IMG/VR virus record: IMGVR_UViG_2908572912_000002
Length of the DNA: 30,084 bases
Origin: a virus
Lineage: Duplodnaviria; Heunggongvirae; Uroviricota; Caudoviricetes
Strand: one strand, 5' to 3'
Below the pieces are notes generated by a model that saw nothing but the letters and a program-made list of their open reading frames with translations, searched no databases and was not told where the DNA came from. This document shows, in pieces, positions 1,103-28,666 of this stretch (the stretch's first letter is position 1; each line of letters starts with the position of its first letter). The translations under genes and the position numbers were made by a program.

Positions 1103-1855
1103 TCAGATTCCCTGGTGAGTAAGAATTTTACTTTCTGAACTCCTCTGAGAGTATTGACTTGGAGAAACACCAAAATAACGTCTAAATACATAAGTAAAGT
1201 ATGAGACACTGGCATAACCACAGACCTTAGCTACTTTACTAATAGGATAACAACGAGTGCTGAGTAAATATTCAGCCATTTGCATCCTCTCATCAAGTAT
1301 GATCTTACTGAATGATACCCCCTCTTCTTTCAATTTCATCTTTAGTAAACTTTCGCTGAGATATAATCTTGATGATATATCCTTAAGACGCCATGGTGCA
1401 GATAAATCCGTATGAATAATCGTTTTAACTTTAGCCCCTGTGCTTTTCAAACATCCAAACAGAAATACTCCAAATTGTTTTTCAGAAGAAAATGCAGAGA
1501 GACATGTAAAAGCAATAGACTCATCAAAAATTTCTATGTATTCAGCACAGTGATTAGCCCAACTAATTAATCCTTTAATTAAACTGAAGTCAGCAAAGTT
1601 TATTTTTAAATAAGATGGATATTCCCTACAATCAGAAATATCCCTTAAGTTATTAGCTTTCAAATAGCGACTAATAAACTCAGCGCCAAAATCCGCCACT
1701 ATCACTCTTTCAGGATATGTCAGGAAAAAATCTCTAGAGCTAGAGTCGACAAGTACAGATGAACCTCTCTCCAGAAACACACTCTCTTTTCCGAAATAAA
1801 CATCAAAGGACTCCAAAATCAATATAACTGAACATGTAGTTGCCATATCATCCAC
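1103..1855 (-). CDS. AraC-family transcriptional regulator, AppY-like (paralog of 10804-11544)
   Basis: 250-aa ORF; C-terminal AraC HTH (ISSRLYLSESLLKMKLKEEGVSFSKIIL...VAKVCGYASVSYFTYVFRRYFGVSPSQY); low-GC coding sequence. Confidence 0.8.
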   Translation of the reverse strand: MDDMATTCSVILILESFDVYFGKESVFLERGSSVLVDSSSRDFFLTYPERVIVADFGAEFISRYLKANNLRDISDCREYPSYLKINFADFSLIKGLISWANHCAEYIEIFDESIAFTCLSAFSSEKQFGVFLFGCLKSTGAKVKTIIHTDLSAPWRLKDISSRLYLSESLLKMKLKEEGVSFSKIILDERMQMAEYLLSTRCYPISKVAKVCGYASVSYFTYVFRRYFGVSPSQYSQRSSESKILTHQGI

Positions 1856-3749: not shown

Positions 3750-6700
3750 TCAATGTTCGCTTCCTGTTAACTGCCCGACAAGTGCAACCAGTTCGCTTAC
3801 CTGATTTTCCAGAGTGCTGATCCGGGTGCCTGCTGTTGCCAGATTTTTACGTAGCGTTATGTTTTCCTCTTCCAGCGCGGTAACGCGACCATCTGTTTCA
3901 CGGGCGACCTGAACAAGTAACCCCGTCACGGCGGCGTAGTCAACATTCAGATAACGTGTTTCTTCACGTAATTCATTGCCGTCAACCGTTGGTCCCTGCA
4001 ACTCTTCACCGTAATGAGTAAACGATCCCACAGCTTCTGGTATCGCCTCCATTACTTCCTGTGCAATAACGCCAGCATAAGGCATCCCGTTTTCCCTGAG
4101 CGTGTAGGTGTATCCGTTCATTTTACGGATTGCTTTCGTCGCGTCGCTGATAACGAGAATATCGTCTTTAAGGTCGCGGTCTGATGACTGATTCAGCGTT
4201 GTGCAATTAATAGCGCCATTTACATCAAACAACTGGCCTGCTGACGTTTTTTGCGCATAAAACAGATACGCAGCAGACGTTCCAACCTCAAAAACGTTTT
4301 GTCGATCACTTGATCCCCATACTTTTGCGGCAAATGATAGTTCTGTATTACCTAAGTTCTGTAAAACAAAACGATTTCCAGTCCCTGTTTGTTTTGTAAG
4401 AGTTAAATCAACAGTTGAGTTAACCTCATCCTTGTTGATAGTGAGCGCCTGCGCTTTAGCCCCGTTAACAGCACCTGTTTTGAGTTGAACCGCGCCGTCA
4501 TTACCATTTAACAGTATCTCAGCTCCGCTAAAGAAATTTTTTAGCGACAGCATCTTACTTACGCCGACTGATGAACCCAACGCCCACGCGAGAGAATTAC
4601 CGGTGCTATCAAACCCACGTACAAAGCAATCCATTTTGCTATAGTCTGACGTGCTTCCAAGGACATCAATTCGCCCTCCGCCAGATTTTACCGGGTTAGA
4701 TGTGGTTAATGACCTGACAGCAAGATCGGTAGATGAATTGAGATCGTCTACTGTTAGTAATTTCTTCCATTCCTGCGTCGTTCCATTTTCAATTGTTCTT
4801 CCCCAAAAACCGGAATTGCGGCCTCCGAACTGCACAGCATAATTTTTACTAAATTGAACATGAATGCCGCCAAGAACCATAGAACCTGCCGGGCCGTTTG
4901 TACTGCCTGCAATTGGTATAAATTTATTAATGTTATCAGTATGCTGCGTGTTCCAGTCTCGTCCTGTTTTTGTAAGCAGTCCTAATGTCGTGTCGAGCGC
5001 TTCGGTTAAAGTAAGGTTTTTAAATTTAACTGCGCTACTTTCGCCAAGACTTAAGTTGTTTCGCGCATCTTCTACTGTTGTCGCACCTGTACCTCCTTGC
5101 CCAACAGCTAATGGCAACCAGCCAGTGCCATTATGACAACCCCACAAACCAGATTTGGAAACCTGTAAGCGTGGTGCGCCTGAAGAATACGTAGAATATA
5201 CGTAAGTTGTTTCTTTTCCCTCTTCAACCCTTTCTGTTGATACATCTCTCTTCCATTCAGACCAGGTACCGCTTCCTCCTTCATATATTCGTCTATAAGT
5301 AATTCCCGGATTATTATAAGGGTAGTACACCTGAACGCAGGAAGAAGCAGTGTTGGCTCTCGTTTGGAGCACTATTAAAGCGCCCGCCAGACCGATTGGG
5401 TAATTTAATTCTTCTGTTGCGTAAGCGCTCGTTGGTTGTTGATAGAAACCAGAATATTCACCGGTAAGGGTGTTTAGGTCAGTATTAGCAAGGCCAGCTT
5501 TTTGCTCATACATTACCCGCAAGTTCGCACGTGCTTGCTCGATAGTTCTTCCACCAGTACCGCCCTGGGCTAAACCTAACGGAGACCATTGTCCAGAAGA
5601 AGAATCATAAACCCCCCAACTCCCGTTAGTATGGATTTCAAAGAAACGATCACCAGTTGGACCATACATACGAGTTGTTGATTCATTTTGACCAAAGCGG
5701 CTTAATTCATCTCTGCGGGTATGACGTATCCATTGCGGGCCAGAACTTTGGCTGTAAATGTACGAATACAATGATTTTGTATCTGAACCAACAAATAGAC
5801 CGGAATATCTTTTTGTTGACACTTCTGATCTAACTATATAACCAGAAATAAGATTATCACCGGCACTAGACGCTACTGATGGATAACCTTTCGCTGAGAT
5901 GTAAATCCTGACAAATCCAATATAACCTGATGGCTCAACAGAGATATCAGTGCAGGTCATGGCAACTTCACCAAGACCGATATTATCGCCAACAATTACT
6001 TGCGCCTGGTTGCGATAATTAAGTGCGTCCGCCGCAGATTTCGCCGCGTTTGTTTCACTGGATTTAGCATTAGTTTCGCTGGCTTTAGCGTTGGTTTCGC
6101 TGCTCTTTGCTGCTGCCTCGCTATTTTTCGCGTTGGTTTCTGATTTTTTGGCTGCTGTCGCGGAGTTTGCTGATGCAGTTTGTGAGTCTGCTGCCGCCTG
6201 TGCGCTGTTATCTGCATTCGTCTCAGACGTTTTTGCGGCCTTCGCGGAATTTCCTGCCGCCGTTGCCGAGGAAGCTGCACTACTGGCACTTGATGATGCG
6301 TTCGTTTCTGATGATTTCGCTGCCTCTTTTGAGGCCGACGCATCCCGGGCTGAGGTGGCAGCTTCTGACGCTTTCGTGGTCGCGGTGGATGCAGAAGTGG
6401 CTGCTGATTGTTGTGACGCTGCCGCATTCGTTTCTGACGTTTTCGCCGCACCGGCACTGGTAGCCGCCGCGCTTTTTGAGGACTCTGCAGCGGCAGCACT
6501 TTTTGAGGCTTCAGTGGCCTTTGTTGATGCCGTTCCTGCGCTGGAAGACGCTGACTGAGCCGACGAAGCGGCCTGTCCGGCTGACGTGCTGGCTGCACGT
6601 GCTGAATCTGCAGCATCAGTCGCATGGGTTGCCGCCTCACGGGCTGATGTGCTGGCATCGCTGGCTGATTTCTTCGCGGCTGCCGTGTTCTGTGCCACCG

Positions 6701-7061
6701 CGGACGCGTTACGCGCCACCTCTTCCACCATCAGTTCAAAACGGCGCAGAGCCTCCGGACGGGCATCATCCTCCGTCATGGCACCGAGAAAATCATTCAG
6801 CGTACCGGGTCGGGAATCTTCATACACGGTGATGGTCCCGGCATGTGACGGCGGGAATCCTTCCACCAACAGAATAACGCTGTACTGACCGTACTCAACG
6901 TCCATGCTGTAACGCCCGGCTTCATCCGGATTTTCTGAGGCCAGCGTGTTCACCACCACCGTGGTGCTGTTACGTTTTGCTTTCAGCTGGATTGTGCAGT
7001 TCTGTACCGGTTTTCCTGTGCCGTCTTTCAGTACACCTGAAATCTTTACTGCCATATTCAC
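3750..7061 (-). CDS. stf: side tail fiber protein (Stf), chimeric: lambda-like N-terminal anchor, Ala/Ser/Thr-rich repetitive stalk, divergent distal domain with possible C-terminal intramolecular chaperone-like segment
   Basis: 1103-aa ORF; N-terminus MAVKISGVLKDGTGKPVQNCTIQLKA... as in lambda Stf; long SETNA-type repeats; C-terminal ...NGYTYTLRENG...ALEEENITLRKNL... Confidence 0.85.
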   Translation of the reverse strand: MNMAVKISGVLKDGTGKPVQNCTIQLKAKRNSTTVVVNTLASENPDEAGRYSMDVEYGQYSVILLVEGFPPSHAGTITVYEDSRPGTLNDFLGAMTEDDARPEALRRFELMVEEVARNASAVAQNTAAAKKSASDASTSAREAATHATDAADSARAASTSAGQAASSAQSASSSAGTASTKATEASKSAAAAESSKSAAATSAGAAKTSETNAAASQQSAATSASTATTKASEAATSARDASASKEAAKSSETNASSSASSAASSATAAGNSAKAAKTSETNADNSAQAAADSQTASANSATAAKKSETNAKNSEAAAKSSETNAKASETNAKSSETNAAKSAADALNYRNQAQVIVGDNIGLGEVAMTCTDISVEPSGYIGFVRIYISAKGYPSVASSAGDNLISGYIVRSEVSTKRYSGLFVGSDTKSLYSYIYSQSSGPQWIRHTRRDELSRFGQNESTTRMYGPTGDRFFEIHTNGSWGVYDSSSGQWSPLGLAQGGTGGRTIEQARANLRVMYEQKAGLANTDLNTLTGEYSGFYQQPTSAYATEELNYPIGLAGALIVLQTRANTASSCVQVYYPYNNPGITYRRIYEGGSGTWSEWKRDVSTERVEEGKETTYVYSTYSSGAPRLQVSKSGLWGCHNGTGWLPLAVGQGGTGATTVEDARNNLSLGESSAVKFKNLTLTEALDTTLGLLTKTGRDWNTQHTDNINKFIPIAGSTNGPAGSMVLGGIHVQFSKNYAVQFGGRNSGFWGRTIENGTTQEWKKLLTVDDLNSSTDLAVRSLTTSNPVKSGGGRIDVLGSTSDYSKMDCFVRGFDSTGNSLAWALGSSVGVSKMLSLKNFFSGAEILLNGNDGAVQLKTGAVNGAKAQALTINKDEVNSTVDLTLTKQTGTGNRFVLQNLGNTELSFAAKVWGSSDRQNVFEVGTSAAYLFYAQKTSAGQLFDVNGAINCTTLNQSSDRDLKDDILVISDATKAIRKMNGYTYTLRENGMPYAGVIAQEVMEAIPEAVGSFTHYGEELQGPTVDGNELREETRYLNVDYAAVTGLLVQVARETDGRVTALEEENITLRKNLATAGTRISTLENQVSELVALVGQLTGSEH
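6000..6700. repeat. Degenerate tandem repeats encoding the Ala/Ser/Thr-rich (KSSETNA-like) stalk of Stf
   Basis: Reiterated gcgttggtttc/gctg motifs; many spurious overlapping ORFs in all frames in the six-frame track. Confidence 0.7.
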
Positions 7062-7119: not shown

Positions 7120-7659
7120 TCAGAATTTATAACCGACACCCACGATGAAACTGTTGGTACGCCAGTCACCGCTGCCGGAGCCTTCATAAGCGACGTCAAC
7201 GGCCACGGATTCGGTCGGGTTAAACTGCACGCCAGCTCCCCACGCCAGAGACGTGTTGCTGTGGCGACCGTCATCACTTCCGGTCAGCACATCGTGCGTT
7301 TTCCCCTTGTTGTCAGTTACGCGGATATAATCCCCGGAGAAAGTCGAAACACGGCTGTAAGCCATACCCGCCATCGCATACGCGCTGAACCATTCATTCA
7401 CGCGCACAGACGGCCCCGCCATCACGCTGAACCAGCGATTACGCACGGAATCCTCATGCCAGCGGGTATCGCTGTAATGCGTTTTTTGCTCATCTTCAGC
7501 GTTGGCATAACTGAATGACGTAATCAGCCCCAGCGTGTCCGTAAACTCATAACGGTATTTCACGTTAATCCCGTTCAGATTATCGCTGCCGGAAGCGTTC
7601 GTACGGGCATGAAGATACCCTGCGCTCAGCGTGGCCTGCTGCTCAGACGCCGCAGTTCT
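7120..7659 (-). pseudogene. lom: lom-like outer membrane protein (Ail/Lom/PagC family), 5'-truncated (no start codon or intact signal peptide)
   Basis: Frame open upstream of the listed GTG (7563) to 7659: ...ASEQQATLSAGYLHARTNASGSDNLNGINVKYRYEFTDTLG...WRTNSFIVGVGYKF; C-terminal beta-barrel motifs as in lambda Lom. Confidence 0.75.
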
Positions 7660-9439: not shown

Positions 9440-9907
9440 TCATCGAAGGCATTGCGTCCTGATGTATTCCTGAAGCGTTCTCAGTGCTGTTTGGTCGCGG
9501 ATAATTCCGTCCCGGATACCGAGAACGTTTCGTCCAGCAACTGGAGAGAGTTCGACGGTGGCATCATTGCCCATGCCGGAGGCGCTGGAGGTTTCGGCTG
9601 AGGATGGCACAGGGCATTTTCCTTTGACGAGCACCCGACCACCATTATCAAGCTTGCGCCGAAGAGCATCATTTTCAGCTTTCGCATCAGCTAACTCCTT
9701 CGTGTATTTATCATCGAGTGCATCAGCATCACGCTGGCGCTGCTGCATGTCAGTAATGGTGGCGTTCGCCTTCTCCAGTTCACTGGCCTTGTTATCGCGC
9801 TGTTCTTTGTAGGCGATTGCATTATCACGGTAATGATTAACAGCCCATGACAGGCAGACGATGATGCAGATAACCAGAGCGGAGATAATCGCGGTTACCC
9901 TGCTCAT
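9440..9907 (-). CDS. Rz: i-spanin Rz (RzpD-like), N-terminal TM anchor, coiled-coil periplasmic domain
   Basis: ORF 9440-9919; likely start [26 protein letters not shown]... overlapping endolysin stop; downstream of endolysin. Confidence 0.8.
9481..9687 (-). CDS. Rz1: o-spanin Rz1 (lipoprotein, Pro-rich) embedded in the +1 frame of Rz
   Basis: 68-aa ORF within Rz on same strand; lipobox MVVGCSS; proline-rich [16 protein letters not shown]. Confidence 0.75.
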
Positions 9908-10401
9908 TGTTGCCCCCACAAACAGACCTCACGCTCAATCTCACGACGAGTCATCAGGCCTTTCCATTGCTTACCGCCAGCGTATGCCCAGCGACGTAGC
10001 TGGTCACATGCGCCCTTGATATCGCCCTGGTTTATTTTGCGAAGAAGAGTAGATGTTCTGAAATTGCCTGCGCCCACGTTATAGACGAACGAGTAAAGAG
10101 CGCCGCGCGTTGTTTCCGGTATATCGACTTTGATGTACGGGTTAATTTGTCTGGCTACCGTGGCAAGGTCTTTATTCAGGAGGGCTTTGCATTCTGCTTC
10201 GGTATACGTTTTACCGGGAATGATGTCTTTTCCTGTATGCCCGTGACATACAGTCCATACGCCAACGATATCTTTGTATGGTATGTAGCTGACACCTTCC
10301 AGACCATCGTTACCACTTGGGCCAGTGATTAACACTGATGCTATAGCAATTGCTCCGCCACCAATAGCAGCAGCAACGGCTTTTCGTAATGATGGAGGCA
10401 T
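9904..10401 (-). CDS. R: SAR endolysin (T4-lysozyme-like glycoside hydrolase family 24; RrrD/R21-like)
   Basis: 165-aa ORF; N-terminal Gly/Ala-rich SAR segment [20 protein letters not shown]; ...[21 protein letters not shown]...[20 protein letters not shown]... resembles E. coli RrrD. Confidence 0.9.
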
Positions 10402-10616
10402 TATTCACCTCTCGCAGCCTTGCGCTTATCTTCTTTAATCTTGAAATAAAGGTTTGTCAGGTACGTCAGCAGGCCAAATACCAAGCTACCCAGCACACCT
10501 ATTGCTGCCCACTGTGAGGGCGTGACTTTATCGAGCAGCTGTAAAAACCAGTAGCCAGCACTGCCTGCGGAGGTGCCGTAGGCAATGCCCGTTGTTAACT
10601 TATCCATGGATTTCAT
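10401..10616 (-). CDS. S: pinholin (S21/EssD-like) with dual-start motif (Met1-Lys-Ser-Met4)
   Basis: 71-aa [74 protein letters not shown]; two TMDs; immediately upstream of endolysin. Confidence 0.9.
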
Positions 10617-10803
10617 AGCCTCACCTCCGCAAATAACGGATGGTGTACACGGTTCGGAACGAAGAGGAAAGGTATAGAAGTTACATTAGCGTAAGGCTTG
10701 AACATCTATTCAAAAAGAAAAACGCCGCGATTATTCTGGCGTAGCTGAAAGCATCATACAATTATCAAATACGAAAATTACAAAATCATTAAAACGCATC
10801 ACG

Positions 10804-11544
10804 TTACATCATGTCTTTTTCTAAAAAAAATCTTGATGAATATTGATGGGGAGGAACACCAAAATACCTTCTGAAAACACTTACAAAATATGACGTGTTT
10901 TCATAACCGCATATCTCAGCAACTTTTCCAACAGAATATAAATTGTAGCTTAATAACCTTTCCGCCATCACCATTCGCTCTTCAAGAATTAACTTACTAA
11001 ATGATAAGCCTTCGTGCTTTAATTTTCTTTTTAACAGACTTTCACTCAGATACAGTCTTGAAGATATATCACAAAGTCTCCATGCTGCAGATATATCCGT
11101 GTGAATAATAGCCTTAACTTTACTTCCTAAACTATTAAGACATCCAAATAAAAAACTTTGCACTATTTTCTCTGAAGATAAGATAGCAAGACATGCAAGT
11201 GATATTTGATTTCTAACAAAATCCACAGTTCTGCCATCACAATTCAAGCATGCAATCAAGTTCTTTAACAATGAAAAATCTTCACATTCCACCATCAAGT
11301 ATGCCGGATAAAACCTTCTTACAGAAAAAGGTGAGAGTGTGTTGCTTTTAAAGAAATCATTAACTGTTTTTTCTTCAACATCTACGATCATTACATGATC
11401 TATATTTGATGAAAAAAAATCTTTTAAATTGTAATCAATGAGAACAGCACTTCCTTTTTTAAACAAAATATCTTCTTTACCAATTCGGACATCAAACGAG
11501 TTCAACACCAAAATGATAGAACATATGTATAGCATATTATCCAC
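10804..11544 (-). CDS. AraC-family transcriptional regulator, AppY-like (paralog of 1103-1855)
   Basis: 246-aa ORF; C-terminal HTH ISSRLYLSESLLKRKLKHEGLSFSKLIL...VGKVAEICGYENTSYFVSVFRRYFGVPPHQY; low-GC; AT-rich upstream region. Confidence 0.8.
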   Translation of the reverse strand: MDNMLYICSIILVLNSFDVRIGKEDILFKKGSAVLIDYNLKDFFSSNIDHVMIVDVEEKTVNDFFKSNTLSPFSVRRFYPAYLMVECEDFSLLKNLIACLNCDGRTVDFVRNQISLACLAILSSEKIVQSFLFGCLNSLGSKVKAIIHTDISAAWRLCDISSRLYLSESLLKRKLKHEGLSFSKLILEERMVMAERLLSYNLYSVGKVAEICGYENTSYFVSVFRRYFGVPPHQYSSRFFLEKDMM

Positions 11545-11886
11545 CTGATATCATTGGGGTTACACCAGGTAAGTATAGGTGGAAAATCAATATTCGCCAG
11601 TTCAACAATAAGGAAAATTTCATTGCATCACAAGTATAAAATTATGTATTTAACTCACAAAGACAAATTATTAAACCAATCTGTTATATTATATATAGCT
11701 GCGTGGAATCATAATATTATATATTTTGACTGGCATGTTTACTAACTTTAAGTTGCATCTCAATTGTTTCTTCAGCGTAAACAGACTTTTTATACAAACT
11801 GACACTCTGGGTATCATAGTGTAGTTTTTACGATTGTAAATATCCTGCATGCAGGAACTCATCCTTTTGGATGATATCGCATACAA

Positions 11887-12846
11887 TTAATTTACCATCA
11901 GTCTTAGAGCCAGTTCGTCCGGATAGGGATCGAAGTAATTCTGTGTAAGCAAGTAATCATTAGGATACTCACCCAGATAATGCTTCAGCAGAGTCAACGG
12001 CGCAAGAAGAGGTAATGTGCCAGAACGATAGTTAAGTATAACCTCGCTCAACTCTTTACGCTGGCGTGTACTTAAGTAGTTACTAAAATACCCCTGTATA
12101 TGCATCAGCACATTCGTGTGATTTTTACGTGATGCAGGTTTTCTGAGAATCGCCATCAGCTTATCACGATACACCTCAAAGTATGATTCAAGGTCCGCCC
12201 ACTCGTGTATTGCAGCCACAAATGGTCCCATATCTTTATAGCCTGCCTGACTATGCGCCAACAACTGAAGCTTATAACGACTATGAAAAGCTAATAACTC
12301 TCTTCTTGATAATTTCTCCTTGTAAAGGTGATTGAGCTCATGCAAAGCAAAAACTCTTTCAACAAAATTCTCACGAAGCACTGGATCATGTAATCGCCCA
12401 TCCTCTTCAACCGGTAGCCAGGAAAACTTTTCCATCAAAGTGCTCGTAAATAGTCCCACTCCATCTTTACGACCTCGATTACCATTTTCATCATAGACAC
12501 GCACGCGCTCCATGCCACAGCTGGGAGATTTAGCACAAACCACAAACCCCGATACATCCTTTAATTTGTCCATATAAGAACGACTAAACTCTGTCATTCT
12601 CTCTGTCACATCCTCATTCTGGTCGTGGCTGAAACACATCCGTATATTTCCTTGCGTCGAGCGCACAAGACGTAGAGCAGGACGCGGAACTGGCAGCCCT
12701 ATAGCCATTTCCGGACATACTGGTCTGAATGTTACCCATTCCACTAATTTGTCCATTAAAAAGTCAGCTCTTTTGTGACCACCATCAAAACGAACAGCAG
12801 AACCGGCCAAACAACCGCTGATTCCAATCACAGGTTTTTTTATCAT
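11887..12846 (-). CDS. two-domain DUF523 (TudS-like, putative 4Fe-4S thiouracil desulfidase fold) plus DUF1722 (YbgA-like) protein
   Basis: 319-aa ORF; N-terminal VIGISGCLAG...VRFDGG...RPVCPEMAIGLPVPRP...CAKSPSCGMERV (Cys pattern of DUF523); C-terminal YbgA-like helical region. Confidence 0.65.
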   Translation of the reverse strand: MIKKPVIGISGCLAGSAVRFDGGHKRADFLMDKLVEWVTFRPVCPEMAIGLPVPRPALRLVRSTQGNIRMCFSHDQNEDVTERMTEFSRSYMDKLKDVSGFVVCAKSPSCGMERVRVYDENGNRGRKDGVGLFTSTLMEKFSWLPVEEDGRLHDPVLRENFVERVFALHELNHLYKEKLSRRELLAFHSRYKLQLLAHSQAGYKDMGPFVAAIHEWADLESYFEVYRDKLMAILRKPASRKNHTNVLMHIQGYFSNYLSTRQRKELSEVILNYRSGTLPLLAPLTLLKHYLGEYPNDYLLTQNYFDPYPDELALRLMVN

Positions 12847-13038
12847 ATTCTCCCCCTTGACTAATTCATTAACACATAAACTGTGTAGTGCACGGAATAA
12901 ATTGCCTTTCTGGCGTCATCACTGACAATTTTTCTGTTATGGACTATTCCTAATATAGTATGAAAGTTCTTTAAGTGATCGGTCGTAATCATCTATCTTT
13001 CATACTTACTCTCAACTATCAAAAGTACAGGATTTATT

Positions 13039-13563
13039 ATGAAGTTATGGCCTGTGTTGACTGGCATTGCACTCTCTTTCACTCTTATAGCATGTAAGGC
13101 CCCGACACCACCTAAAGGTGTGCAGCCGATTACAAATTTTGACGCCAACCGCTACCTCGGAAAATGGTATGAAATAGCTCGCCTCGAGAACCGGTTCGAA
13201 CGTGGTCTGGAACAGGTCAGCGCTACTTATGGAAAACGGAACGACGGAGGGATTCGTGTACTTAACCGTGGATACGATCCAACGAAAAATAAATGGAGCG
13301 AGAGCGAAGGTAAAGCATACTTTACTGGAGATACTAAAACTGCAGCATTGAAGGTTTCGTTTTTTGGCCCCTTCTATGGTGGCTATAATGTAATCAAACT
13401 GGATGATGAGTATAAGTATGCTCTTGTCAGTGGTCCGAACAGAGAATACCTATGGATTCTGGCAAGGACCCCAACTATTCCAGATAAAGTAAAAGCAGAC
13501 TATGTGCGAACCGCTCAAAAGTTGGGATTCAATGTCAATGAATTATTATGGGTTAAACAATAA
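13039..13563 (+). CDS. outer-membrane lipocalin lipoprotein (Blc-like)
   Basis: 174-aa ORF; lipobox LIAC; NFDANRYLGKWYEIARLENRFERGLE...GKAYFTG...ALKVSFFGPFYGGYNVI...YLWILARTP closely resembles E. coli Blc. Confidence 0.85.
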   Translation: MKLWPVLTGIALSFTLIACKAPTPPKGVQPITNFDANRYLGKWYEIARLENRFERGLEQVSATYGKRNDGGIRVLNRGYDPTKNKWSESEGKAYFTGDTKTAALKVSFFGPFYGGYNVIKLDDEYKYALVSGPNREYLWILARTPTIPDKVKADYVRTAQKLGFNVNELLWVKQ

Positions 13564-13591
13564 AATCCCTACCCGAAATAATACTTATTAG

Positions 13592-13618
13592 AAAAAAACC
13601 AGCCTTTGGGGAGGCTGG
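13592..13618 (-). terminator. Rho-independent terminator downstream of Q (candidate tR' of the late transcript)
   Basis: Minus-strand hairpin ccagcc-tccccaaa-ggctgg followed by TTTTTTT; ~100 nt after the Q stop. Confidence 0.55.
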
Positions 13619-13718
13619 CTAAATCAGGAAACAAGCTGTTATATGATAATAACTACGTTGCGATTCCAACATTTAAAATGTTAGACTAATGACAATCAGA
13701 CAGCAACTTTTCCTTTAA

Positions 13719-14111
13719 TTATTTCGAACAATCAGCATCCATCTCCAATCGGAGATCCAACACCATCAGCATACCCTCCACTACGCCCTCAGCTTTCTGA
13801 AGCATCCTGCCAACCCAACAATCAGATCGCCCATGCTTACGTGCAAGCGCCATAAAAGTCATGCCGCCGACATAATAGTCCACCAATAAATCATGCAAAT
13901 CGCTGTTGTTCTTTTTCAGACGGGCCATGCACCCGCAAATGATCATCGCGTCATCGTCACAACATTGTGGGCGAGATTTTACTTTTGAAGGAATTAATCC
14001 CTTAAAACCGGCGGCAATGGACGACCAGGTCACATCTTCATGATTATTAGCCGCCCACGCTCCCCAACGCTCAAGAACCATCTGAATATCACGCATCAAC
14101 TTACTCCACAA
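13719..14111 (-). CDS. Q: late-gene antiterminator Q (phage 82/21/DLP12 QuuD type)
   Basis: ORF 130 aa; from internal Met: [62 protein letters not shown]... resembles QuuD; sits between rusA and lysis genes. Confidence 0.85.
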
Positions 14112-16622: not shown

Positions 16623-17117
16623 TCATTTCCAATTGCAAGACTGTGAAATTTTTTCCACAACCTTATCAATCTCAGACAAGTCAAACTCAACTACTTGCAT
16701 AGTTGATCCATAAGGTTCAAACCCAAAAATAGCTTTTTTATGCTTAGCCAAGGTCTTTATAAATTGTATTGGTTGTGGAGCAAATGCAGAATCACCGCCT
16801 TCCCCACCTCCCCAAACACTCTTGACCGGCTTTCCGCCATCTAACCGCACTGTAATTCTTGGGTTGTCCGAACCCATATAATCATTGAATGATAAATAGG
16901 CATCTGTTTTGTTATCACTACAACGCAACACCAGTGAAGTTGCACGATCAGTACCTGCTTTGTTATATGAATCTGGTGATAAATTAAGAGCCACAAAGTC
17001 AGTCTGGTCAGTCATTTTATTTATCTCAGACTTTGTTATCCACGGCCCTAACTTCTCTACACCAGCATTTGCTGTAAACGAGGCACTTATAACAAAGGCT
17101 AAAATAAATTTTCTCAT
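16623..17117 (-). CDS. hypothetical secreted/periplasmic protein with N-terminal signal peptide
   Basis: 164-aa ORF MRKFILAFVISASFTANAGV...; low-GC; lies in a foreign insert between truncated ren and ninB. Confidence 0.6.
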   Translation of the reverse strand: MRKFILAFVISASFTANAGVEKLGPWITKSEINKMTDQTDFVALNLSPDSYNKAGTDRATSLVLRCSDNKTDAYLSFNDYMGSDNPRITVRLDGGKPVKSVWGGGEGGDSAFAPQPIQFIKTLAKHKKAIFGFEPYGSTMQVVEFDLSEIDKVVEKISQSCNWK

Positions 17118-22943: not shown

Positions 22944-23015
22944 GCGCGGCGTTACCGCATACCAATAACGCTTCACTCGAGGCGTTTTTCGTTATGTATA
23001 AATAAGGAGCACACC

Positions 23016-23180
23016 ATGCAATATGCCATTGCAGGGTGGCCTGTTGCTGGCTGCCCTTCCGAATCTTTACTTGAACGAATCACCCGTAAATTACGTGACG
23101 GATGGAAACGCCTTATCGACATACTTAATCAGCCAGGAGTCCCAAAAAATGGATCAAACACTTATGGCTATCCAGACTAA
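23016..23180 (+). CDS. cIII: CIII (FtsH inhibitor protecting CII)
   Basis: Hand translation [54 protein letters not shown] (54 aa). Confidence 0.85.
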   Translation: MQYAIAGWPVAGCPSESLLERITRKLRDGWKRLIDILNQPGVPKNGSNTYGYPD

Positions 23181-27399: not shown

Positions 27400-27618
27400 A
27401 TGTACTTGACACTTCAGGAGTGGAACGCTCGCCAGCGACGCCCAAGAAGCCTTGAAACAGTTCGTCGATGGGTGCGCGAATGCAGGATATTCCCTCCTCC
27501 GGTTAAGGATGGAAGAGAATATCTGTTCCACGAATCAGCGGTAAAGGTTGACTTAAATCGACCAGTAACAGGTAGCCTTTTGAAGAGGATCAGAAATGGG
27601 AAGAAGGCGAAGTCATGA
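27400..27618 (+). CDS. xis: excisionase Xis
   Basis: 72-aa MYLTLQEWNARQRRPRSLETVRRWVRECRIFPPPVKDGREYLFHESAVKVDLNRPVTGSLLKRIRNGKKAKS. Confidence 0.97.
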   Translation: MYLTLQEWNARQRRPRSLETVRRWVRECRIFPPPVKDGREYLFHESAVKVDLNRPVTGSLLKRIRNGKKAKS

Positions 27619-28666
27619 GCGCCGGGATTTACCCCCTAACCTTTATATAAGAAACAATGGATATTACTGCTACAGGGACCCAAGGACGGGTAAAGAGTTT
27701 GGATTAGGCAGAGACAGGCGAATCGCAATCACTGAAGCCATACAGGCCAACATTGAGTTATTTTCAGGACACAAACACAAGCCTCTGACAGCGAGAATCA
27801 ACAGTGATAATTCCGTTACGTTACATTCATGGCTTGATCGCTACGAAAAAATCCTGGCCAGCAGAGGAATCAAGCAGAAGACACTCATAAATTACATGAG
27901 CAAAATTAAAGCAATAAGGAGGGGGCTGCCTGATGCTCCACTTGAAGACATCACCACAAAAGAAATTGCGGCAATGCTCAATGGATACATAGACGAGGGC
28001 AAGGCGGCGTCAGCCAAGTTAATCAGATCAACACTGAGCGATGCATTCCGAGAGGCAATAGCTGAAGGCCATATAACAACAAACCCTGTCGCTGCCACTC
28101 GCGCAGCAAAATCAGAGGTAAGGAGATCAAGACTTACGGCTGACGAATACCTGAAAATTTATCAAGCAGCAGAATCATCACCATGTTGGCTCAGACTTGC
28201 AATGGAACTGGCTGTTGTTACCGGGCAACGAGTTGGTGATTTATGCGAAATGAAGTGGTCTGATATCGTAGATGGATATCTTTATGTCGAGCAAAGCAAA
28301 ACAGGCGTAAAAATTGCCATCCCAACAACATTGCATGTTGATGCTCTCGGGATATCAATGAAGGAAACACTTGATAAATGCAAAGAGATTCTTGGCGGAG
28401 AAACCATAATTGCATCTACTCGTCGTGAACCGCTTTCATCCGGCACAGTATCAAGGTATTTTATGCGCGCACGAAAAGCATCAGGTCTTTCCTTCGAAGG
28501 GGATCCGCCTACCTTTCACGAGTTGCGCAGTTTGTCTGCAAGACTCTATGAGAAGCAGATAAGCGATAAGTTTGCTCAACATCTTCTCGGGCATAAGTCG
28601 GACACCATGGCATCACAGTATCGTGATGACAGAGGCAGGGAGTGGGACAAAATTGAAATCAAATAA
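27596..28666 (+). CDS. int: tyrosine integrase Int (lambda type), apparently intact
   Basis: 356-aa MGRRRSHERRDLPPNLYIRNNGYYCYRDPRTGKEFGLGRDRRIAITEAIQANIELFSGHKHKPLTARINSDNSVTLHSWLDRYEKILASRGIKQKTL...; full length with C-terminal catalytic region. Confidence 0.97.
   Translation: MGRRRSHERRDLPPNLYIRNNGYYCYRDPRTGKEFGLGRDRRIAITEAIQANIELFSGHKHKPLTARINSDNSVTLHSWLDRYEKILASRGIKQKTLINYMSKIKAIRRGLPDAPLEDITTKEIAAMLNGYIDEGKAASAKLIRSTLSDAFREAIAEGHITTNPVAATRAAKSEVRRSRLTADEYLKIYQAAESSPCWLRLAMELAVVTGQRVGDLCEMKWSDIVDGYLYVEQSKTGVKIAIPTTLHVDALGISMKETLDKCKEILGGETIIASTRREPLSSGTVSRYFMRARKASGLSFEGDPPTFHELRSLSARLYEKQISDKFAQHLLGHKSDTMASQYRDDRGREWDKIEIK

Follow-up and report, generated by a model that had tools for sequence, protein, structure and literature searches.

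The stx genes of Stx phages and the nmpC/ompD porin gene of prophage DLP12 occupy the same slot, between the antiterminator gene Q with its terminator tR' and the holin gene S, and stx is known to be co-transcribed with the late genes (PMC8065619). The lipocalin gene blc has been listed as a moron carried by more than half of 19 infant-gut lambdas (Mathieu et al., PMC6969025), and every TudS-DUF1722 fusion protein tested by Jamontas et al. (2024), among them RudS_vir (gp66 of phage 1H12), lowered tRNA 4-thiouridine (s4U) when expressed in E. coli (PMC11417400). The present analysis concerns a 30,084-nt stretch of DNA (the window) from a member of the Caudoviricetes, IMG/VR record IMGVR_UViG_2908572912_000002, which carries in this slot a low-GC block of three genes in the order blc (plus strand), rudS (minus strand) and araC (minus strand), bounded by Q and an S21-type holin gene. 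The same entity is found in phage 1H12 (Jouyvirus, NC_049947; gp65-gp67), Lambda_ev087 and IdasGreatGrand, all with the arrangement Q-blc(antisense)-rudS-araC-S. We are highly confident that the block is dispensable cargo in the Q-S slot and that its parts have been correctly identified. The cassette is already known in that its sequence, its location in phages, the moron status of blc and the activity of RudS_vir are all published, although a search of the literature turned up no paper dealing with all three genes together. What is added here is the frequency of the cassette in the population, the boundaries of the module, its spread over prophage types, its chromosomal ancestry and the closer kinship of its regulator to PatE.

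The features of the region, in window coordinates, are:

13719-14096, minus strand: Q antiterminator of the QuuD type, 125 amino acids (Pfam PF06530, E 2.5e-51)
13636-13718, minus strand: presumed late promoter (pR')/Q-loading region (alignment with the K-12 and ev243 versions)
13597-13620, minus strand: tR'-like intrinsic terminator, with a 9-bp stem, 6-nt loop and U7 tail
13039-13563, plus strand: blc, outer-membrane lipocalin lipoprotein, 174 amino acids (Pfam Lipocalin_2, NCBIfam Blc)
12847-13038, no strand assigned: divergent blc<>rudS intergenic region (alignment with the Enterobacter blc<>merR intergenic region)
11887-12846, minus strand: rudS, TudS plus DUF1722, 319 amino acids (Pfam PF04463 and PF08349)
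11536-11886, minus strand: rudS-araC spacer, AT-rich, GC about 0.32 (composition)
10804-11535, minus strand: AraC/XylS regulator of the PatE/Psr family, 243 amino acids, GC 0.316 (Pfam HTH_18/HTH_AraC)
10628-10803, minus strand: araC-to-holin spacer with a weak hairpin and U-run, the left end of the exchangeable module
10401-10616, minus strand: S21-type (class II) holin EssD, the first late gene past the cargo (Pfam PF04971)
9904-10401, minus strand: endolysin (Pfam PF00959)
9440-9919, minus strand: Rz (Pfam PF03245)
15586-14319, minus strand: ybcN, ninE, ybcO and rusA, upstream of Q (open reading frame listing and Pfam)

Comparison by BLAST with two siblings that carry a porin in this slot, K-12 DLP12 and phage ev243, showed about 93% identity up to position 10627 and again from 13737, with no homology between, so delimiting an exchangeable module at 10628-13736. 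The module takes in the last ~6 codons of Q along with the late-promoter and terminator region, and continues to a point 11 nt short of the holin ATG. Its composition is distinct: the GC content of the block is 0.381, falling to 0.316 in the AraC gene, whereas the window averages 0.453 and the lysis genes have 0.50. The block has these attributes of a moron: it lies between conserved phage genes, is lower in GC (0.38 versus 0.45-0.50), and gives way to a porin in siblings whose flanks are about 93% identical. The initial annotation had described a low-GC, three-gene insert between Q with its terminator and the holin, in the slot used by stx and nmpC; the open reading frames, Pfam matches and composition uphold the first point, and the porin found between Q and S of the same type in K-12 DLP12 and ev243 upholds the second.

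Among the described relatives, phage 1H12 has proteins that are 98% (Q), 97% (Blc), 93% (RudS) and 82% (AraC) identical to those of the window at the amino acid level, whereas at the DNA level the window allele stands at about 90% identity, with araC the most divergent gene, and resides in a defective prophage at the lambda attachment (att) site. The flanks resemble those of DLP12, and nmpC is antisense, like blc, but the window cargo differs from nmpC and stx in consisting of three genes in two orientations and in having its own version of the pR'/tR' region. The Q protein is of the DLP12 QuuD type (87.5% amino acid identity to K-12 QuuD), while its match to Q21 structures is distant (37 bits). 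A placement of pR' and the Q-binding element borrowed from the Q21 literature was dropped, since the window Q is only distantly related to Q21.

The product of blc matches Pfam Lipocalin_2 (PF08212, E 7e-44) and scores 316 bits against the NCBIfam Blc model NF007786, above its cut-off of 267. The signal peptide, as read directly from the sequence, is MKLWPVLTGIALSFTLIAC followed by K, with the lipobox L-I-A-C19 and, at +2, Lys as an outer-membrane sorting residue. These features bear out the early description of a Blc-like lipocalin lipoprotein on the plus strand. The mature protein shows 64% identity to E. coli Blc of known crystal structure (PDB 3MBT; see also 1QWD and 2ACO), with which it shares the lipoprotein signal and a score above the Blc cut-off, but the window copy is a phage-borne paralogue, and Blc encoded next to rudS in Enterobacter is nearer to it than the crystallised protein. 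By analogy with the latter, it would bind lysophospholipids or fatty acids in the outer membrane.

The middle gene had been annotated as a DUF523/DUF1722 protein and a putative Fe-S nucleobase-modifying enzyme. Both domains are present (PF04463 at residues 7-149, E 3e-40; PF08349 at residues 192-309, E 2e-40), giving the TudS-DUF1722 fusion that defines RudS, and the assignment can be refined to a tRNA s4U desulfidase, the activity of the window allele being predicted from its 93.4% amino acid identity to RudS_vir. In RudS_KT the essential residues are the cluster-binding cysteines C17, C49 and C114 and the catalytic residues E51, R60, S111 and S113 (PMC11417400); all have counterparts in the window protein (C12, C44, C110, E46, R55, S107 and S109).

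The third gene encodes a protein with a C-terminal double helix-turn-helix (HTH; PF12833/PF00165) that matches PHROG 1450 with 358 bits; translation is taken to begin at the ATG that follows AGGTGG rather than at a GTG at 11544. That it is an AraC/XylS regulator on the minus strand, as first annotated, holds; the likeness to AppY does not hold so well, identity to AppY being 32% against 53-54% over 235 amino acids to ECs_0287 of strain Sakai. As ECs_0287 is the sole AraC-type gene in prophage Sp1 (= OI-8), it is by position presumed to be PatE. Against curated models the closest was YdeO, at 126 bits versus a cut-off of 348, with GadX at 85 versus 500, and an orthologue of YdeO, GadX or AppY was rejected on these scores and on the low identity to AppY. 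The database relatives are proteins of E. coli prophages, falling in identity steps of 82%, 64%, 56% and 53%. The window protein was compared with PatE through the sequence of ECs_0287, and with PsrA and PsrB by family description only. Like PatE, PsrA/PsrB and AppY (243-249 amino acids), it is prophage-borne, low in GC and has the C-terminal AraC double HTH, but their genes lie at the tail-fibre end of prophages, unlike the araC of the Q-S slot. PatE and PsrB switch on the acid-resistance genes gadE/hdeA while repressing type III secretion (PMC10877973), and the window regulator probably activates H-NS-silenced stress genes of this kind as well. The window holds a second AraC/XylS gene (1103-1846, minus strand), in low-GC DNA beyond the tail-fibre gene, the product of which showed a single amino acid difference from ECs_0287 and is 53% identical to the AraC of the block, so that two paralogues of the PatE/Psr family are present in one prophage.

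The origin of blc and rudS could be traced by scanning for RudS relatives in one genome per species. At 66-77% identity they occur in about 60 species of the Enterobacterales, and 43 of the 64 RudS loci have a Blc homologue divergently oriented upstream (mostly 77-82% amino acid identity, range 68-82%). Of the 64, 43 encode in the flank a regulator of the MerR family with MlrA-type domains. Two layouts recur. In Enterobacter, Leclercia, Lelliottia and others the order is blc <> merR/mlrA-like - transthyretin-like - rudS. In Citrobacter, K. oxytoca, Pectobacterium and Dickeya it is [merR] - SDR - amine oxidase - cyclopropane-fatty-acid-synthase-like - DUF2878 - DUF3833 - rudS, with rudS as the last gene of the cluster (noted at 5457-5987 of locus L006 and at related loci). 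Raoultella merges both, with blc <> merR followed by the SDR cluster, and from this divergent position of blc it would seem that Blc and RudS share a stress regulon. Homology is also seen in part of the non-coding DNA: the Enterobacter blc<>merR intergenic region can be aligned with that half of the phage intergenic region which lies next to blc, the element TATATT at 12957-12952 (minus strand) included. Citrobacter sedlakii and Citrobacter sp. JGM124 have blc and rudS directly adjacent, as in the phage, but alignment of the phage intergenic region with those of the two Citrobacter pairs gave no convincing homology, and these pairs look like independent deletions.

No araC gene was found at the chromosomal rudS loci scanned, and the phage araC is also much lower in GC. 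Judged from these comparisons, the cassette is a composite, a stripped chromosomal blc<>rudS locus combined with an AraC gene from the E. coli prophage pool. It retains the divergent orientation, the levels of protein identity given above and part of the intergenic region, but differs from the chromosomal loci in lacking the MerR-type regulator and the intervening genes and in having gained the AraC gene. RudS genes have been reported to sit in light-responsive MerR/LitR operons, and the lost regulator was probably light- or stress-responsive (PMC11417400).

The cassette is common. The cargo was detected in 1151 of 5426 complete E. coli genomes (21%), in 997 of them at a coverage of at least 80%, and the entire Q-to-S interval, at the same coverage, in 979. 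The alleles fall into classes ranging from >99% down to 80-90% identity. Among deposited phages 12 carry the block, IdasGreatGrand with 98.5% DNA identity over the whole interval, and Lambda_ev087, 1H12 and others with about 90%. It is also present in 127 IMG/VR contigs; among the best 80 of these, in which gene order was examined, the order Q-blc(antisense)-rudS-araC-S-R is complete in 73, and the remaining seven seem, for the most part or entirely, to be truncated where the contig stops. With these counts, and with blc already published as a moron, the earlier statement that the combination is unusual for this slot is not supported. The hosts of the cassette are DLP12-type, lambda-att and Qin-type prophages (the last with ydfU/rem/hokD and ydfR/rrrQ/cspI flanks), in each case with Q and S of the same type. 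Two short contigs of the Saccharibacteria metagenome-assembled genome D148_maxbin.008, labelled 'Candidatus Nanosynbacter sp.', also carry it (RudS 94-100%, Blc 99%, AraC 98%, Q 100%, holin 99%), and are almost certainly binning contamination by an E. coli phage.

All three genes are under purifying selection. The ratio of nonsynonymous to synonymous substitution rates (dN/dS) between alleles is 0.06-0.19 for blc, 0.11-0.24 for rudS and 0.23-0.26 for araC, from which it follows that they are maintained by selection. In some genomes, such as those of E. coli B and strain 165, the cassette is interrupted by an insertion sequence (IS) or truncated. E. coli has been described as lacking RudS, and BL21(DE3) served as a RudS-free background (PMC11417400). 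In the Qin region of E. coli C43(DE3), of the B lineage, blc is found together with a 147-nt 5' fragment of rudS cut by IS3, downstream of a Qin-type Q.

The expression signals of the block are of two kinds, those of the late operon and those of the individual genes. The late genes of the prophage are on the minus strand. From their sense orientation and their position past Q and its terminator, rudS and araC would on architectural grounds be expected to receive Q-dependent read-through, whereas blc is antisense to the late operon. The initial annotation had placed a terminator at 13592-13618; a strong terminator is indeed present there, but its span is corrected to 13597-13620. It is a GC-rich, tR'-like hairpin 100 nt 3' of Q, with a free energy of -14.9 kcal/mol and a z-score of -4.18 on the minus strand; on the plus strand, where it lies at the end of blc, it is without a U tract and its z-score is only -0.45. 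The Q-proximal regions of the window, K-12 and ev243 share only short islands, among them ATATAACAG (13644-13636).

Within the block, a candidate araC promoter, TTTACA-16-TATGAT (11840-11813, minus strand), is found in the rudS-araC spacer, and its core TTTACAATCG is identical in four alleles. The TATATT conserved with Enterobacter is a candidate element of the rudS promoter. Fold analysis showed the hairpins after rudS and after araC to be weak as terminators. Right after the rudS stop codon, at 11840-11886 (minus strand) and next to the invariant TTTACAATCG, there is a stable hairpin (91-nt fold, -25.5 kcal/mol, z -4.6). A structured RNA at this position was considered and rejected, the other alleles keeping only a 5-bp stem (with two compensatory changes in 1H12-type alleles). 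Searches of the block with Rfam and for tRNA genes returned no match; the only Rfam match in the window was Lambda_thermo, the cIII thermoregulator (23003-23061, plus strand, 88.5 bits), and the window has no tRNA genes.

No LexA box was found in the blc<>rudS intergenic region, and control of rudS or blc by LexA and the SOS response was rejected, as the only match, with one mismatch, falls within the coding part of rudS and the number of matches over the window is within chance. The same intergenic region contains a palindrome, AAATTG-N21-CAATTT (12899-12931), which is present in Qin-type alleles. It is reminiscent of the MlrA box, but the reading as an MlrA-type operator was set aside and is no more than a weak lead, since the 1H12 allele has only a degenerate form of the palindrome and the chromosomal loci lack it.

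Taken as a whole, the functional model that we consider somewhat more probable than its alternatives together is that of a widespread moron cassette conferring lysogenic conversion for stress tolerance, towards near-UV light, envelope stress and acid. A phage would have captured blc<>rudS from an enterobacterial chromosome, with loss of the regulator and the intervening genes, and this pair would have been joined by an AraC gene of the PatE/Psr family drawn from the prophages of E. coli. Own promoters would drive expression of the genes in the lysogen. RudS, with a [4Fe-4S] cluster on Cys12, Cys44 and Cys110, would replace the sulfur of s4U8 in host tRNA, as its close homologue RudS_vir does, and with this near-UV chromophore gone, less tRNA cross-linking and less growth arrest under ultraviolet A (UVA) could be expected by extrapolation from RudS_KT, the overexpression of which cut UVA-induced growth delay by ~45 min (PMC11417400). 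Blc, by comparison with E. coli Blc, would be exported as an outer-membrane lipoprotein and serve envelope maintenance, and the AraC protein, given its 54% identity to the presumed PatE, would probably switch on H-NS-silenced stress genes such as gadE/hdeA. Upon induction, the orientation of the genes suggests that Q-modified polymerase would pass tR' and transcribe both rudS and araC before reaching the lysis genes, and that late transcription would run antisense through blc and collide with blc transcription.

Several points weigh against this model. The gut is dark, and a role in UVA tolerance would be relevant only outside the host. A promoter consensus scan of the block found sites to be no more numerous than in shuffled sequence, so that own promoters stay candidates, and 54% identity to a presumed PatE is no guarantee of the same regulon. 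RudS_vir, despite good expression, was less active than RudS_KT and RudS_ST; it also showed some activity on free 4-thiouracil, with the shortest lag, so tRNA may not be its sole substrate (PMC11417400). Lastly, deletion of thiI, which leaves tRNA without s4U, mildly lowers lambda replication (PMC3296357), and this argues against a benefit of s4U erasure to lytic growth under ordinary conditions.

Of the other explanations, the one that survives best, though we think it unlikely, is that rudS and araC are primarily late-operon genes that serve the phage itself, RudS stripping s4U after UV exposure and SOS induction so that UVA cross-links and the stringent response spare late protein synthesis. 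Both genes are read in the late direction, immediately past Q and tR' and ahead of S, which would suit this, as would the constant association of the cassette with the Q-S module, the effect of RudS on UVA growth delay, and the loss of the chromosomal MerR regulator, which leaves room for control by Q. A purely phage-directed role is nevertheless weakened because thiI deletion lowers rather than raises lambda replication. Furthermore, RudS cannot mend tRNA that is already cross-linked, and late expression may come too late; blc, being antisense, stands outside the logic of a late operon, and sibling phages manage without the cassette.

A more novel and still less likely proposal is that the cassette is a portable near-UV/photo-oxidative stress module, which a lambdoid phage would have taken from a light-response locus under a MerR (LitR/MlrA-like) regulator, dropping the light-sensing regulator while rudS was rewired to Q, and possibly to the PatE-like regulator. 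The s4U photosensor would then be erased after sunlight or UV-SOS, and translation kept for virions. If true, lysogens would give rise to natural strain-to-strain variation in the s4U content and UVA tolerance of E. coli.

It is doubtful, more so than either of the foregoing, that the block acts in superinfection exclusion or anti-phage defence, with Blc altering the outer membrane and RudS lowering s4U to make a poorer host for incoming phages. Lambdoid morons are often membrane proteins or exclusion functions (PMC6969025), and the thiI result that speaks against a lytic benefit keeps this idea weakly alive, since loss of s4U synthesis mildly protects against lambda; the effect, however, is mild and was attributed to sulfur competition (PMC3296357). 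None of the three proteins is matched by the PADLOC defence models, and the chromosomal orthologues of Blc and RudS are stress genes in a non-defence context.

Decaying passenger DNA without current function is very improbable. The prophage in the window is itself defective, with head and tail genes deleted, and the cassette has the IS insertions and truncations noted above in some genomes, but dN/dS stays at 0.06-0.26 across alleles up to ~30% synonymous divergence, and neither frequent frameshifts nor values near 1 were observed. The catalytic residues are intact, plaque-forming phages carry the cassette, and it is intact in about 1000 genomes. That the block is a conserved lysis-accessory module of this phage lineage can be practically dismissed, for although it always adjoins S/R/Rz, the Q-S comparison across lambdoid prophages proposed in the initial annotation, when run, showed the block to be exchangeable, with a porin between the same Q and S in K-12 DLP12, ev243, ev099 and other phages, and no protein of the block belongs to a lysis family.

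Some further features of the window concern the state of the prophage as a whole. It is integrated at the lambda att site, with the integrase gene at 27596-28666 and ybhC from 28801. At about 7649 the remnant of the nohD/cos side borders directly on a truncated lom (7120-7563) and the tail-fibre gene (3750-7061), from which it follows that all head genes and most tail genes have been deleted. An IS1 copy is present at 2050-2826 and an IS3-type integrase fragment at 696-1061. Near the nin region, an inserted open reading frame for a 164-amino-acid protein with a signal-peptide-like sequence (16623-17117, minus strand) has a marginal Pfam match to VasI of type VI secretion (26.7 bits versus a cut-off of 26.5), and in a related genome this gene is flanked by IS1 copies.

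These results leave current concepts unchanged and mainly offer testable hypotheses. In the cassette we have a clean case of a stress locus that was taken from a chromosome by a phage, lost its regulator and spread between prophage types together with the Q-S module. Its araC gene adds a third lineage of the PatE/Psr type, in a new prophage position and in a prophage that also has a near-exact copy of the presumed PatE, which is relevant to the regulation of acid resistance and virulence. With about one fifth of complete E. coli genomes carrying a prophage RudS, and laboratory B strains keeping a broken copy, tRNA s4U content and near-UV physiology may differ between strains of this species because of the cassette.

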